Shown in pieces: positions 3,210-7,309 of a DNA stretch of 64,000 nucleotides. Both the position numbers and the translations under genes were made by a program. Positions within the stretch are counted from its first letter, which is position 1; each line of letters begins with the position of its first letter. Source of the stretch: an uncultured Phycisphaerales bacterium (lineage in GTDB: Bacteria; Planctomycetota; Phycisphaerae; Tepidisphaerales; Tepidisphaeraceae); the NCBI GenBank assembly GCA_963755915.1, contig CAVWLP010000002.1, forward strand, positions 4,896,001 to 4,960,000. The letters are read 5' to 3'. The notes beneath the pieces were generated by a model. It was not told where the DNA came from. It saw only the letters and a program-made list of their open reading frames with translations, and did not search any database.

Positions 3210-4773
3210 TCACCTCGCATATTCCACCGAGCGCACCTCGCGGATGAGCGTTACCTTGATCTCGCCGGGATAATTCAGCTCGTGCTCGATCTTCTTGGCG
3301 ATGTCGCGGGCGATTTTGGCGCTGATGCGGTCGTCGACCAGCTTGGCGTCGACGATCACGCGAACCTCGCGGCCGGCCTGGATGGCGTAGGCCTGGCGTA
3401 CGCCTTCGAAAGTCATGGCCAGGTCTTCCAGCTCCTGGAGGCGCTTGACGTAGCGCTCGAGGCTTTCGCGGCGGGCGCCGGGGCGGCTGGCGCTGATGGC
3501 GTCGGCGGCCATGATGATCGGCGGTGTAGGGCGTGGTCGGCGGGAACGTCGCCGTGATGGGCTTCGGCGGCGTTGAGAACCGCCTCGGGCTCGTCGAATC
3601 GGCGTAGAAATTCCTTGCCTAGCTGGGGGTGGCCGCCTTCCTGCTCGTGGTCCATGGCTTTGCCGATGTCGTGGAGCAGGCCGGCGCGGCGGGCGAGGTT
3701 GCCGTCGAGGCCGAGCTCGTCGGCGATCACCTGGGAAAGATAGGCGACTTCCAGCGAATGCTTCAGCACGTTCTGGCCGTAGCTGGTGCGGAAGGCCAGG
3801 CGTCCGAGCATGGGGATGATCGGGCTTGGCGACCTGGAGGTTGGCCTCCTGGGCGGCTTCTTTGCCCGAGGCGGATCAGCTCTTCGTCCATCTCCTTGCT
3901 GGTCGCGGTGACGACCTCTTCGATGCGTGCGGGATGGATTCGGCCGTCCTGAACGAGGCGGTCGAGGGAAATGCGGGCGATTTCGCGGCGAACGGGGTCG
4001 AAGCAGCTGACGACGACGACGCCGGGCGTGTCGTCGATGATGACATCCACGCCGGTCGCTTTCTCGAAGCTGCGGATGTTGCGGCCCTCGCGGCCGATGA
4101 CGCGGCCTTTCATGTCGTCGGTGGGGATGGTCACCGTGCTGACGGTGTGATCGGCCGTCTGTTCGGCGGCGTAGCGCTGGATGGCCTGAAGGATGATCTG
4201 CCGGCTCTTTTCCTTGGCTTCGTCCTGGGTCTGCTCGGTAATTCGCTGGATGATGGCGCCTGCTTCGAGCTTGCAATCGTCCTCGATGCGCTTGAGGAGC
4301 ATTTCCTTGGCCTGCTCGGGAGACATGCTGGTGAGCTGCAGTAGCCGGTCGCGCTGCTCGCGCAGAATTCTGGCAAGCTCTTCTTCCTTGCCGGCCAGGG
4401 ATTTTTCGCGCTGGGCAATGCTTCGCGTCCTGATCGTCGAGGTGTTTTTCCTTGACGGAAAGCGTGTCGAGCTTGCGATCGAGGGTGTCTTCGCGCTTGG
4501 CGAGGCGGGCTTCGAGCGACTTGAGCTCGTTGCGGTCTTTTTCGGTTTCCCGCTCGAATTGCTCTTTGCGCTTGAGTTGTTCCTGCGCGCGGCCAGTTCG
4601 ATTTCCTTGGCCTTGTTCTGGGCCTCGGATTGGGCGTTGTTGCGAAGCTGTTCGGCTTCGAACTTGCTGCGGTTGATGGCGCTATTGGCCATCATTTTCA
4701 TCGCGACGGCGGTACAGGCCACGCCGACGACCAGGCCGATCAGGAGATACAAAATGATTTCCATGAATCCCAC
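3210..4773 (-). CDS. rny: Ribonuclease Y, broken by several indels (probably assembly errors); start at 4773 (GTG) or 4764 (ATG)
   Basis: N-terminal TM, coiled coil, KH domain ([30 protein letters not shown]), HD domain ([12 protein letters not shown]...[10 protein letters not shown]) and C-terminus ([14 protein letters not shown]...[11 protein letters not shown]...YPGEIKVT) are spread over three ORFs. Confidence 0.95.
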
Positions 4774-4848
4774 CCGAGTTGGTTAACTCGCAATGCGGAT
4801 ATAAACGAAATACCCCTGATTAGACGGGTGGGTGTTGAGCAGCGCGTT

Positions 4849-5106
4849 TCAACAGCAGTCTGAAGCGCGTGCCTGGCATTGCCCAATGAAAGTCACTGTG
4901 GGAGGTGCTCGCGAAGGGAGGATGATCCACCGGCGGGTATTGGACCGGACGGGGGAGTTTAGATCGAGCCGCACTGCAAGCTGGGCCGGCAAAAGTTGCC
5001 GGCGCCAGAGCTCCGCCAGGCGATGGGAGAGCGCGAGCAGCAGCCCGAGCAGGCCCAAAGCCATGAGAACTGTCTTCGTGAGTATTCCCAAAATGAGGAC
5101 GTTCAT
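4849..5106 (-). CDS. Putative 85-aa leader peptide of rny: N-terminal TM segment plus RAPP motif (candidate ribosome-arrest peptide)
   Basis: MNVLILGILTKTVLMALGLLGLLLALSHRL...WIILPSRAPPTVTF...; RAPP is codons 66-69 (4900-4911). Lies between a promoter and rny on the same strand. Confidence 0.6.
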   Translation of the reverse strand: MNVLILGILTKTVLMALGLLGLLLALSHRLAELWRRQLLPAQLAVRLDLNSPVRSNTRRWIILPSRAPPTVTFIGQCQARASDCC

Positions 5107-5223
5107 TTCGAACCGTCGAATCAAGGAACTGTGGGGCGAGGGTCTATCCGCTCCTGACCACCGCCCTTTCGGATGCACACCGGAATCAAAAAAGACCGAA
5201 TGCGATCCAAATCTACTGCTCAT

Positions 5224-5251
5224 ATTTTACGCACATGGCGTTAAGTTTCAA
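5224..5251 (-). promoter_or_regulatory. Sigma70-type promoter for leader-rny (TTGAAA-16-TAAAAT)
   Basis: Minus strand reads ttgaaa cttaacgccatgtgcg taaaat. Confidence 0.65.
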
Positions 5252-5265
5252 GATGGATAAATGGG

Positions 5266-5877
5266 CTAGGAATGGTGGGAATGTGGACGACCGGGCACAA
5301 CGGGAGGGGGTAGAGAGGCGGCGGCAAGACGATCCAGGCCGGAAATTACCTCTGGGTTGCGGGTTGTCCACCAGAGCTGATGGTGGTGGTGGATTGTGCA
5401 AACGGTTTTTTGTGCGGGGAATGCGAGGGAGAAGTCGCTGGCGGTGAGGTTTTGCAATAGGCTGCGGAGGGTGATTTCGAAGGTGGGCTGCTCCGATGGG
5501 GTGAATTCGACGGCGGCGGCGCTGGTTAAACCAATCAGGGACTGCGGATCAATGCTGATCTCGTGCAGGAGTTGCGGCATCCAGGTTCGGCTTCCGTAGT
5601 TCAATTCGAAGGACCAGTGACTGCCGGGCATTATCCAGGCGATGCCGGGCAAGAGCTGAAGCCATGCCTGGGTCGCGAATTTGGATTGGTCGGCGGAAGT
5701 AACGATCCGGAGATTGTCGCGCATCTGGGGCTTGATTGTGGGATCGTCAGATTCAGTCCATCCTCTAATGATCCCTCCGGACGGGAAGCCGAACGCCCCG
5801 CCGTTAAAGTAGTGGCATTCGAGTCCGTCGGCGGTTAATTGGGCCAGGACCTGGGAATAGTCGATCACCCGGGGCAT
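5266..5877 (-). CDS. Hypothetical protein
   Basis: Protein-like ORF from MPRVIDYSQV, directly downstream of argH; ends near ...VCTIHHHHQLWW. Confidence 0.7.
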   Translation of the reverse strand: MPRVIDYSQVLAQLTADGLECHYFNGGAFGFPSGGIIRGWTESDDPTIKPQMRDNLRIVTSADQSKFATQAWLQLLPGIAWIMPGSHWSFELNYGSRTWMPQLLHEISIDPQSLIGLTSAAAVEFTPSEQPTFEITLRSLLQNLTASDFSLAFPAQKTVCTIHHHHQLWWTTRNPEVISGLDRLAAASLPPPVVPGRPHSHHS

Positions 5878-5893
5878 GAATTGCCTTTTTTCG

Positions 5894-7309
5894 TCAGTCG
5901 ATTTTGAGGCGTTTTTTCCAATTGGCCAGTTGGTCTTGGAAGGGTTTTCCACCCGCGGCGCCGGCGCTGCGGTAGCGGTTTACGACGTTTTTTGCGCCTA
6001 GGGAGTCGTAGACATCTTGGTCGGGGCCCACGGATTGCCATCCGTGGGCTTTCAGGGCTTCGTGGAAATCTTCGAGTTTTAGTTGGGCGAGGGCGGTTTT
6101 TCCTTCTTTTTCGCATTTGGCGACCAGGGTGCCTACCACGTGATGGGCGGTGCGGAAGGGGACGCCTTTGGTTACGAAATATTCCGCTAAGCTCGTGGCG
6201 TCGAGGAATCCGCGCTCGAGGGTGGGCTCGATGTTTTCCTTGATGAAATTCGCGGAGTTTACGATTGCGGCGGCCATGGTTAGGCAACTGGTCACGGTGT
6301 CGTAGGCGCGGAAGACGATGCGTTTGTCTTCCTGGAGGTCGCGGTTGTAGCCGATGGGGAGGCCCTTGAGGATGGTCATGAGGGCGAAGAGATCGCCATA
6401 GACGTTTCCGCAGCGGCCGCGGATGAGCTCGAGCATGTCGGGGTTGCGCTTCTGGGGCATCATACTGCTACTGGTGGTGTACTTGTCCGCGATTTTGATG
6501 AAGGAGAATTCGGTGGTCATGTAGATGATCCACTGCTCGGCCCAGCGGGAGAGGTGCATGGAGATGATGGCGAGGTGAAAGACGAATTCGATGGCCAGAT
6601 CGCGCTTGGCGGTCTGTTCGATGCTGCTTGGGGTTACGGCGCCGAAGCCCAGGAGGGAACGCGTCGCTTCGAGATCGAGCGGGAGGGAAGTGCCGGCGAT
6701 TGCGCCGGAGCCGAGGGGATTTTCCATCTCCTTCAGTCGGAATCGGCCCATGCGGTTGAAGTTTTCCGAAAGCATCGAGCACCAGGCGAGGGCCTCGGCG
6801 CCGGCGACGATCGGCTGGGCGCGCTGGAGATGCGTATAGGACGGCATCACAACATCACGGCTTCGGTCGGCCAAAGCGATGAAGGCGCAGCAGAGGGATT
6901 CCAAGGCGGTATCGATTTTGCCACTCGCTTCATCGAGCCAGAGCAGCAGGTCGGTCGCGACCTGATCGTTGCGGCTCCGGGCTGTGTGGAGCTTTTTTCC
7001 GGGTTCGCCGATACGCTCGATCAGCGCGGCTTCGACGACCATGTGGATGTCTTCGAGGCTTTCGTCGAATTTGAATTTGTTGGATTCGATTTCTTTTTCG
7101 ATTTCTTTCAGGCCGGAGATGATGGCGTCGCGTTCGGGGTCGGTGATGAGGTTGACCTTGGCGAGCATTGTGGCGTGGGCGATGCTGCCGGCGATGTCGT
7201 GCTTGTAGAGGCGGCGATCGTAGGTGATGGATTCGACGAAGGACTGGCCGAGGGCGTCGGTGGCTTCGCCGATGCGGGCTTGCCAGGATTTTTCTTTTGC
7301 CATGGGCAT
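5894..7309 (-). CDS. argH: Argininosuccinate lyase
   Basis: EDIHM, KLHTARSRNDQVATD, YTHLQRAQP, SSMMPQKRNPD and YNRDLQEDK motifs. Confidence 0.97.
   Translation of the reverse strand: MPMAKEKSWQARIGEATDALGQSFVESITYDRRLYKHDIAGSIAHATMLAKVNLITDPERDAIISGLKEIEKEIESNKFKFDESLEDIHMVVEAALIERIGEPGKKLHTARSRNDQVATDLLLWLDEASGKIDTALESLCCAFIALADRSRDVVMPSYTHLQRAQPIVAGAEALAWCSMLSENFNRMGRFRLKEMENPLGSGAIAGTSLPLDLEATRSLLGFGAVTPSSIEQTAKRDLAIEFVFHLAIISMHLSRWAEQWIIYMTTEFSFIKIADKYTTSSSMMPQKRNPDMLELIRGRCGNVYGDLFALMTILKGLPIGYNRDLQEDKRIVFRAYDTVTSCLTMAAAIVNSANFIKENIEPTLERGFLDATSLAEYFVTKGVPFRTAHHVVGTLVAKCEKEGKTALAQLKLEDFHEALKAHGWQSVGPDQDVYDSLGAKNVVNRYRSAGAAGGKPFQDQLANWKKRLKID

Follow-up and report, generated by a model that had tools for sequence, protein, structure and literature searches.

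The window analysed here is a stretch of 64,000 nucleotides from an uncultured Phycisphaerales bacterium (contig CAVWLP010000002.1), and the features described below lie on its minus strand. A small upstream open reading frame (uORF), with its ATG at 5106 and a TGA stop at 4851–4849, precedes rny, the gene for RNase Y, whose ATG at 4764 follows after a spacer of 84 nt; a stretch of ~110 nt leads from the promoter to the uORF start (Table 1). The 85-codon frame translates as MNVLILGILTKTVLMALGLLGLLLALSHRLAELWRRQLLPAQLAVRLDLNSPVRSNTRRWIILPSRAPPTVTFIGQCQARASDCC. Its hydrophobic stretch, V3–S27, includes a single Lys at position 11, and a linker of 38 residues connects it to R66. An alternative reading of 124 codons from an ATG at 5223 was rejected, because that ATG falls within the -10 hexamer and is unlikely to be the true start. 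The earlier note, made from the sequence alone, had described this anatomy correctly in every element (85 codons, hydrophobic segment, spacer, RAPP at codons 66–69, 16-codon tail), and its promoter at 5224–5251, TTGAAA-16-TAAAAT, was recovered with 10 of 12 matches.

Table 1. Positions of the features in the window, with the basis of each assignment
Feature	Position	Strand	Basis
Sigma-70-like promoter TTGAAA-16-TAAAAT for leader and rny	5224..5251	-	10/12 matches, sole such site in 4600–5500
5'UTR stem-loop, apical loop GCGGAUA (5151–5145)	5134..5166	-	k-mers, folding, covariation
Candidate leader uORF, 85 codons, stop included	4849..5106	-	strand reading and ORF list, homologues
Hydrophobic segment, codons 3–27, predicted N-out/C-in anchor	5026..5100	-	charge pattern, 98 loci
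Linker, codons 28–65; length kept, sequence poorly kept	4912..5025	-	98 loci
Putative R-A-P-P arrest motif, codons 66–69, CGA GCA CCT CCC	4900..4911	-	sequence and published arrest geometry
16-codon tail 3' of RAPP	4852..4899	-	tail lengths, 98 loci
Hairpin over uORF stop codon, GCGCUUCA...UGAA-AC-GCGC	4842..4868	-	genus alignment and folding z
CCCACCCG, complementary to rny SD-like CGGGUGGG	4825..4832	-	sequence
Spacer motif UAUCCGC, complementary to 5'UTR loop GCGGAUA	4795..4801	-	k-mer counts, pairing
SD-like GGGUGGGA of rny	4768..4775	-	sequence; G-rich runs in relatives
rny (RNase Y), N-terminal membrane anchor; frameshifted in this assembly	3210..4764	-	Pfam, NCBIfam, comparison with G001

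The identity of rny is given by Pfam RNase_Y_N (PF12072) and KH and by NCBIfam TIGR03319, and relatives carry G-rich SD-like runs 5–12 nt ahead of its ATG. Compared with a near-identical relative (G001), six single-base indels break rny in this assembly, while the uORF has none. We read these frameshifts as assembly errors and not as the mark of a pseudogene, since rny is intact in that relative and the window genome, in 3 contigs at 81% completeness, also has a split rho. The uORF peptide matches no Pfam family at E ≤0.1 and no NCBIfam family, and a protein database search with it returned only two unnamed relatives. Upstream of RAPP, the window peptide contains no Cys, and no sensing motif was found there besides the membrane anchor. 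Across the 6.6-Mb genome, the window uORF is the only ORF that is small, has a hydrophobic window and places R[AG]PP at most 40 residues from its end; control motifs in the same genome-wide scan of small ORFs gave 1–2 matches.

Distribution, spacing and predicted topology of the leader

Upstream regions of 900 nt ahead of rny were gathered from relatives in the order, the family in our collection being the whole order (141 genomes, 76 genera). A match to rny was found in 129 of the 141 genomes, with at least 500 nt upstream in 122. For the strict pattern, an ORF running from stop to stop on the strand of rny had to contain a 17-residue Kyte–Doolittle window scoring 1.9 or more and, after it, R[AG]PP; the relaxed pattern accepted lower hydrophobicity and also admitted RDPP, RSPP and RASP. 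Strict matches occurred in 81/122 genomes and 47/71 genera of the order, relaxed matches in 98/122 genomes and 54 genera, with RAPP at 79 of the 98 loci, RGPP at 7, RDPP at 6, RASP at 4 and RSPP at 2. Most of the 41 strict misses, on inspection, proved to carry this ORF too, either scoring a little lower for hydrophobicity or with a changed motif, PAPP (G011) and EAPP (G021) being among them, and 24/122 genomes have no recognisable motif. The RNase Y match scores of genomes without the leader tend to be the most divergent, a hint that the leader was gained once, later than the basal splits. Dropping G014, a genome flagged as unpublished, from the 98 loci alters no conclusion, and the public contig L142 carries the same peptide.

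Controls were close to zero: the reverse strand of the same upstream regions gave 0/122, each of 20 dinucleotide shuffles 0–1 of 122, and 13 control motifs of similar composition at most 5/122. Outside the order, 20 other families of the class, scanned with a wider motif list, yielded 0/93 genomes, and of 78 rny loci taken from public contigs that span many phyla, the pattern is confined to the 10 that belong to this order. The expectation that an ORF with a transmembrane segment and RAPP is conserved before rny thus stands for the order Tepidisphaerales and fails for Phycisphaerae in general. The earlier note had named absence of the ORF or its RAPP from relatives as evidence against a leader, and within the order both are present. 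Judged from sequence comparison, this ORF upstream of rny is not a product of chance.

The uORF also keeps company with rny when its surroundings change. The gene upstream of the leader is kept in only 16/136 loci, 13 of the 16 in the window's own genus, so the leader appears to travel with rny and not with that neighbour. Promoter-like sites were detected upstream of the uORF in 58/98 loci (5.5 in shuffles), at a similar distance each time, and in the spacer between uORF and rny in 0/98 (1.0 in shuffles), which suggests that transcription runs through the leader into rny; in the window, a transcript from the promoter at 5251–5224 would do so. Four RNA libraries from four studies contain parts of the leader, although such contigs prove no transcript, ends or level. 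One of these contigs, of 425 nt and from a 96%-identical relative, covers 4624–5030 with leader, spacer and rny start, without proving a single transcript.

The spacing within the peptide is narrow. Over the 98 loci, the distance from the end of the hydrophobic stretch to the motif Arg has a median of 39 residues (IQR 38–42, range 33–52), and the uncharged hydrophobic stretch itself a median of 23 residues. Lys and Arg average 2.52 in the 12 residues after the helix vs 0.64 in the 10 before it, an enrichment that predicts an N-out/C-in orientation; the same charge rule gives the same orientation for the anchor of RNase Y. The nascent leader would accordingly present a short uncharged or acidic N-terminal tail, a hydrophobic segment of ~23 residues and then Arg/Lys, and insert as an N-out/C-in anchor like that of RNase Y. 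With RAP in the P site, the helix has its C-terminal end ~41 residues and its N-terminal end ~64 residues from the peptidyl-transferase centre (PTC). Transmembrane helices are reported to pull from the point at which their N-terminal end is ~45 residues off the PTC until their C-terminal end is ~45 residues off (PMC7886326), and the predicted arrest point thereby falls inside the published force window.

On these grounds, the 85-codon ORF is probably an arrest leader of the RAPP type that works on rny in cis; that ribosomes arrest, that membrane insertion frees them and that rny responds is what we infer from the sequences. Peptide-bond formation would stall once the P site contains RAP-tRNA and the A site the second Pro codon. 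Since the stall site lies within the helix-pulling window, successful insertion of the anchor, by SRP with YidC and/or SecYEG, would be expected to shorten the arrest and failed insertion to prolong it. Several features fit the arrest reading less well: RAPP stands 16–18 codons from the stop, farther than in classic cases, and the order includes genomes with RASP or with no recognisable motif. The tail after RAPP has a median of 17.5 codons over the 98 loci (mode 16–18, range 8–67). In the window, the motif is 16 residues from the C-terminus; published papers give no hard limit for this distance, and a window of 15 residues has been applied to LPPP.

Conserved RNA elements and possible routes to rny

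In the proposed mechanism, the dwell time of the stalled ribosome would set rny expression from the same transcript, and candidate outputs are Rho-dependent attenuation as in CruR, pairing between 5'UTR loop and spacer, or mRNA cleavage. A further output, unmasking of the Shine–Dalgarno (SD) sequence, was modelled in partition-function folds that kept a segment the size of a ribosome unpaired, either at RAPP or at the stop codon of the uORF. In these models (n=96), accessibility of the rny ribosome-binding site (RBS) was unchanged by masking, at 0.340 when free and 0.347 and 0.357 with the RAPP and stop masks. It was also alike among uORF loci (0.344), order members without the uORF (0.328) and outgroups (0.354). 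The predicted partners of the rny RBS cluster in the spacer, 90–140 nt past the Arg codon, and only ~10% of the predicted RBS pairing involves the RAPP region. SecM-style unmasking of the rny SD is therefore unsupported by the folding models, accessibility being flat with or without a ribosome, and a special sequestration of the RBS in uORF leaders was rejected because non-uORF order members and outgroups look the same.

CruR acts through Rho-dependent termination between uORF and gene, in a region with C>G (PMC9426467). The window genome has rho, and C-G lies between +0.05 and +0.21 over an interval that opens about 30 nt ahead of the Arg codon and closes about 45 nt ahead of the rny ATG; this C>G bias over the uORF end and spacer recalls CruR, but here it is weak and non-specific, the spacer value of +0.075 comparing with +0.031 in the outgroup. 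A Rho site was not assigned on the basis of a bias that outgroups share, and a CruR-like Rho mechanism is possible. No intrinsic terminator was found between uORF and rny in the window, where the sole minus-strand terminator-like site lies at 5208–5193, in the 5'UTR. The region from R+18 to stop+35 is more structured than its dinucleotide shuffles (n=98, mean z -1.77), a point that also counts against a Rho site. In a genus alignment the helix of the stop-codon hairpin is swapped in sister lineages for CCGGUU/AACCGG and CCCGGCU/AGCCGGG.

Two short complementary elements, one on each side of the uORF, are conserved in the order. In k-mer counts, ATCCGC occurs in the spacer in 34/54 genera (shuffle maximum 13), and GCGGAT and AGCGGA occur in the 5'UTR in 39/54 and 40/54 (shuffle maximum 16); GCGGA is present in 94/98 leaders. 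Both 5-nt cores are found in 87/98 loci, the 3' core at a median of 56 nt past the uORF stop and 73 nt ahead of the rny ATG. Beyond the core, the helix extends by 2.85 bp vs 2.09±0.16 bp with permuted partners, a value reached by 0/200 permutations, and the first flanking pair takes compensatory forms (U-A 52, U-G 8, G-C 7, A-U 4, C-G 2, unpaired 14). In 64/87 loci, vs 20.9 expected from flank shuffling, a strong hairpin presents the 5' copy in its apical loop. Its stem, aligned over 35 genera, is 79.9% paired vs 62.1% when shuffled, and 8/8 pairs change on both sides; the rows were pre-selected for folding, which inflates the paired fraction, and the alignment was a trimmed one with a supplied structure.

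As a pair, these elements are specific to the order. Both 6-mers occur in 52/98 uORF loci, 5/19 order members without a recognised motif and 0/71 outgroups, and ATCCGC near rny in 63/98 uORF loci vs 3/71 outgroup loci. Masking the AUCCGC helix raised predicted RBS accessibility only slightly, from 0.346 to 0.376, against 0.356 with a control mask. Given a plain MAFFT alignment of the 5' stem-loop, RNAalifold returned no structure, and Rfam gave no match at E ≤1 in 4500–5600. A covariance model of the stem-loop, with 26 positions, is too weak for a 6.6-Mb search (best E 0.28, with the leader's own copy unlisted).

These RNA elements bear on an alternative role for the arrest. Much as XBP1u does for its mRNA, arrest could hold the rny mRNA at the membrane, where RNase Y would cleave its own leader in a negative feedback. 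We consider such tethering improbable, though it shares the anchor and RAPP anatomy with the arrest reading and gives a use to conserved structured RNA elements that are superfluous for the latter; the lack of support for SD unmasking also favours it. The enzyme is membrane-anchored (PMC11313650), and in Bacillus subtilis RNase Y is reported to autoregulate through cuts that it makes in the 5'UTR and the early ORF of its own mRNA (PMC10303841). Control there passes through rny's own leader, as proposed here, but it works via cleavage by RNase Y and via RNase J1, and a leader peptide does not figure in the account given (PMC10303841). What speaks against tethering is that cleavage sites are neither known nor predictable here, and that the narrow spacing of ~41 residues suits release by force, whereas a mere tether needs no such range.

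Selection on the peptide

The arrest reading draws further weight from how the motif varies. Natural substitutions were compared with published tolerance through unbiased counts in the uORFs: R-x-P-P has x = A in 79, G in 7, D in 6, S in 2, I in 2 and P, N and L in 1 each, and x-APP has R in 79 against 9 others. In systematic mutagenesis of ApdA and ApdP, Gly was tolerated in full at the Ala position and Ser, Asp and Pro in part, whereas Arg was irreplaceable (PMC12992588). At the Ala position, natural variation in these sequences matches what those experiments show the motif to tolerate. As a separate observation, RASP occurs in four genera, and a change at that Pro is reported to have abolished ApdA arrest (PMC12992588).

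Conservation in the uORFs extends to the motif, the hydrophobic segment and the spacing only, and the motif stays fixed while the remainder diverges. The flanks of the motif vary except for R at -12 (50/98), P at -2 (59/98) and S at -1 (40/98), and T-F-P is common immediately after it. Near the start, a short N-terminal motif, MNVV..GVQ, is kept. The ORF could instead encode a stable small single-pass membrane protein, for instance a partner or regulator of RNase Y in an ordinary operon, with RAPP serving a structural or binding role. Conservation of the hydrophobic segment, of MNVV..GVQ and of tail length would fit such a protein, but beyond the anchor only RAPP and three nearby positions are kept, with linker and tail diverging freely, and the Ala substitutions mirror arrest tolerance. 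RAPP is moreover avoided in long ORFs of the window genome, where, among the 12 orderings of its residues, it occurs least often (57 vs 79–270), and the peptide has neither a Pfam or NCBIfam family nor more than its two unnamed database relatives. This alternative therefore appears distinctly improbable.

Codon usage speaks to whether the frame is translated. At the 98 loci, the motif Arg is encoded by CGG in 30, CGA in 24, CGC in 23, CGT in 9, AGG in 8 and AGA in 4, and the motif Ala by GCT in 45, GCA in 17, GCG in 14 and GCC in 7; each motif Pro uses all four codons. That every synonymous codon of Arg (six), Ala and Pro is in use indicates that selection acts on the peptide. An untranslated, conserved RNA leader element with an incidental open frame would suit the conserved RNA elements and the nucleotides near the presumed start (AACGTGG...GGAGTT), which are kept beyond amino-acid needs, but it is very improbable: anchor and RAPP share one frame across linkers of 33–52 residues at 98 loci, synonymous codons are free at invariant residues, including CGN/AGR switches, and the reverse strand and shuffles give ~0.

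Relation to known arrest peptides and implications

The anatomy of the putative arrest leader recalls that of B. subtilis MifM, which monitors membrane insertion with an N-out single-span N-terminal anchor and a cytosolic C-terminal arrest sequence. The MifM arrest sequence controls yidC2 by SD unmasking. Anchor and, as proposed for the window leader, cytosolic C-terminal arrest and a role in monitoring insertion are alike in the two, whereas arrest sequence, target and, according to the folding models, output differ. With ApdA, ApdP and RQH (Sakiyama 2021; Fujiwara 2024, PMC10987492; Morici 2024, PMC10951233), the window leader shares the form of an unannotated small uORF that has a localisation segment at its N-terminus, over 30 residues of spacer and RAPP. 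Homologues share little besides RAPP in these systems too, the Ala variants fit the mutational tolerance, and the distribution is patchy, the window leader being confined to one order. In contrast to ApdA, ApdP and RQH, which precede secA, secDF or yidC, it precedes rny, has its motif 16–18 codons from the stop and carries conserved 5'UTR and spacer RNA elements. Set against the four search criteria published in PMC10987492, it shows an N-terminal localisation segment, a conserved motif towards the C-terminus and the spacer of more than 30 residues (criterion iv), and it is not upstream of sec/yidC (criterion i).

RAPP leaders ahead of other kinds of genes have precedents. CruR of Bordetella pertussis (Roy 2022, PMC9426467) is, like the window leader, a RAPP uORF with a non-Sec target; it differs in being a DUF2946 protein with a copper-sensing CXXC and with RAPP 3 residues from its end, whereas the window peptide has no Pfam match and no Cys ahead of RAPP. 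Small membrane or secreted proteins with RAPP or RGPP before genes of many functions were reported in December 2025 (Fujiwara, Tsuji et al., EMBO J; PMC12992588), the downstream genes named there including TonB-dependent receptors, YcnI, PCu(A)C, PepSY, DsbA and thioredoxin, that is, metal homeostasis and oxidative folding. In that report, small proteins of Streptomyces lividans with RAPP or RGPP close to the C-terminus were translated in PURE systems: 7/7 stalled with B. subtilis and S. lividans components, and most of the same proteins gave mainly full-length product in E. coli PURE (PMC12992588).

The earlier note had held that this pairing was not known to have been described. As regards RAPP leaders before non-Sec genes, precedence belongs to PMC12992588; a link to RNase Y was not found, and the pairing of a RAPP leader with RNase Y appears new. 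The main text of PMC12992588 contains 'RNase Y', 'rny' and 'ribonuclease' zero times and 'RNase' only as RNase A treatment. The literature search returned no paper linking an arrest peptide to RNase Y; the only paper there with both terms, a Rae1 study, mentions RNase Y once. As described, the survey in PMC12992588 used predicted proteomes, whereas leaders of the window type are almost never called as genes. Gene callers skip RAPP leaders, only two database proteins being alike, and such leaders can consequently escape proteome-based surveys.

The sign of the proposed control can be approached by analogy. Judging from SecM, MifM and CruR, we lean slightly towards poor insertion leading to more RNase Y. 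In its most extended form, the arrest reading becomes an order-wide circuit in which the leader reports insertion capacity and so sets the level of membrane RNase Y, the output being a new long-range GCGGAU/AUCCGC RNA switch and not the SD-unmasking or CruR routes. This full circuit is rather unlikely; if true, it would be a bacterial counterpart of the logic of the eukaryotic unfolded-protein response. In that response, an mRNA is carried to the membrane by an arrest peptide with a hydrophobic segment, and an RNase in the membrane lightens the burden of mRNAs targeted there.

RNase Y starts most mRNA decay in its host bacteria and acts from the membrane. In B. subtilis, cytoplasmic RNase Y at wild-type level is reported to slow growth about as much as loss of the enzyme (PMC11313650). 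If a nascent-chain insertion sensor gates rny, envelope biogenesis and global mRNA turnover would be coupled at translation elongation. The 98 natural variants, with their tight spacing rule, offer material for force-profile and arrest-motif studies. Among RAPP leaders, the one described here is unusual in both its target, rny, and its architecture, and in this order the production of RNase Y may track the efficiency of membrane entry.

RNA elements around the leader

The entire RAPP leader ORF is bracketed by two conserved elements: a 5'UTR stem-loop carrying GCGGAU in its loop and the complementary AUCCGC in the spacer ahead of rny, the RNase Y gene. This pair is specific to the order Tepidisphaerales, and no Rfam match to it was found. 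Only a few bases downstream of the presumed transcription start comes a terminator-like hairpin with its T-run, GGATCGCATTCGGTCT TTTTTGATTC; in the predicted full fold it belongs to a longer 5'-terminal hairpin, and it could serve as a 5' stabiliser or an attenuator.

Features in and around the rny locus (window coordinates)
Feature	Position	Strand	Basis
228-residue ORF upstream of the leader	5266-5952	minus	ORF reading
Terminator-like hairpin and T-run	5193-5208	minus	sequence
5'UTR stem-loop, GCGGAU in loop	5134-5166	minus	conserved
Leader tail after RAPP	4852-4899		
AUCCGC in leader-rny spacer	4795-4801	minus	conserved
rny indel region	3519-4586	minus	comparison with G001

Neighboring gene and assembly quality

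The 228-residue ORF belongs to no Pfam family and has no credible NCBIfam match (the sole one scores 13.8 bits, E 0.031, where the cut-off is 220); its synteny is limited to the window's genus and three other genera. Compared with the intact rny of the near-identical relative G001, the window copy carries six single-base indels (at 4586, 4420, 3864, 3820, 3538 and 3519), and rho in the same genome (C3:794178-795414) is likewise broken, into two frames. Since the assembly comprises 3 contigs at 81% completeness, both sets of frameshifts look like long-read indel error across the whole assembly, and other frameshifts in the window should therefore not be taken as pseudogenes.

Conserved and variable parts of the leader

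At the presumed leader start in relatives (e.g., rny loci L070, L071, L034 and L082), nucleotide conservation exceeds that of amino acids, with the pattern (ATG)AACGTGG, ~9 nt, then GGAGTTCAA.TCGCGCAG, encoding the N-terminal motif MNVV..GVQ.AQ. The window reads ATG AAC GTC here, and GTG is probably the start codon in relatives without this ATG. After RAPP, the tail is Cys-rich in the window and its genus relatives (…GQCQARASDCC, …RQCWITGCGFC); tails in other genera are Arg-rich and lack Cys. Across the window's whole genome, this leader is the only small ORF to have both a hydrophobic segment and a C-proximal R[AG]PP motif, so that, by these criteria, its sec and yidC genes are without a RAPP-type leader.

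In a few members of the order, the Arg or the motif itself is gone, yet the ORF with its anchor is still there, as are the spacing and the GCGGAT/ATCCGC pair. RAPP is replaced by PAPP at L026 (genome G011), EAPP at L007 (G021), PSPP at L029 (G020) and RAPR at L012 (G023). These four leaders may be decaying or re-tuned, and they would be usable as natural loss-of-arrest controls.
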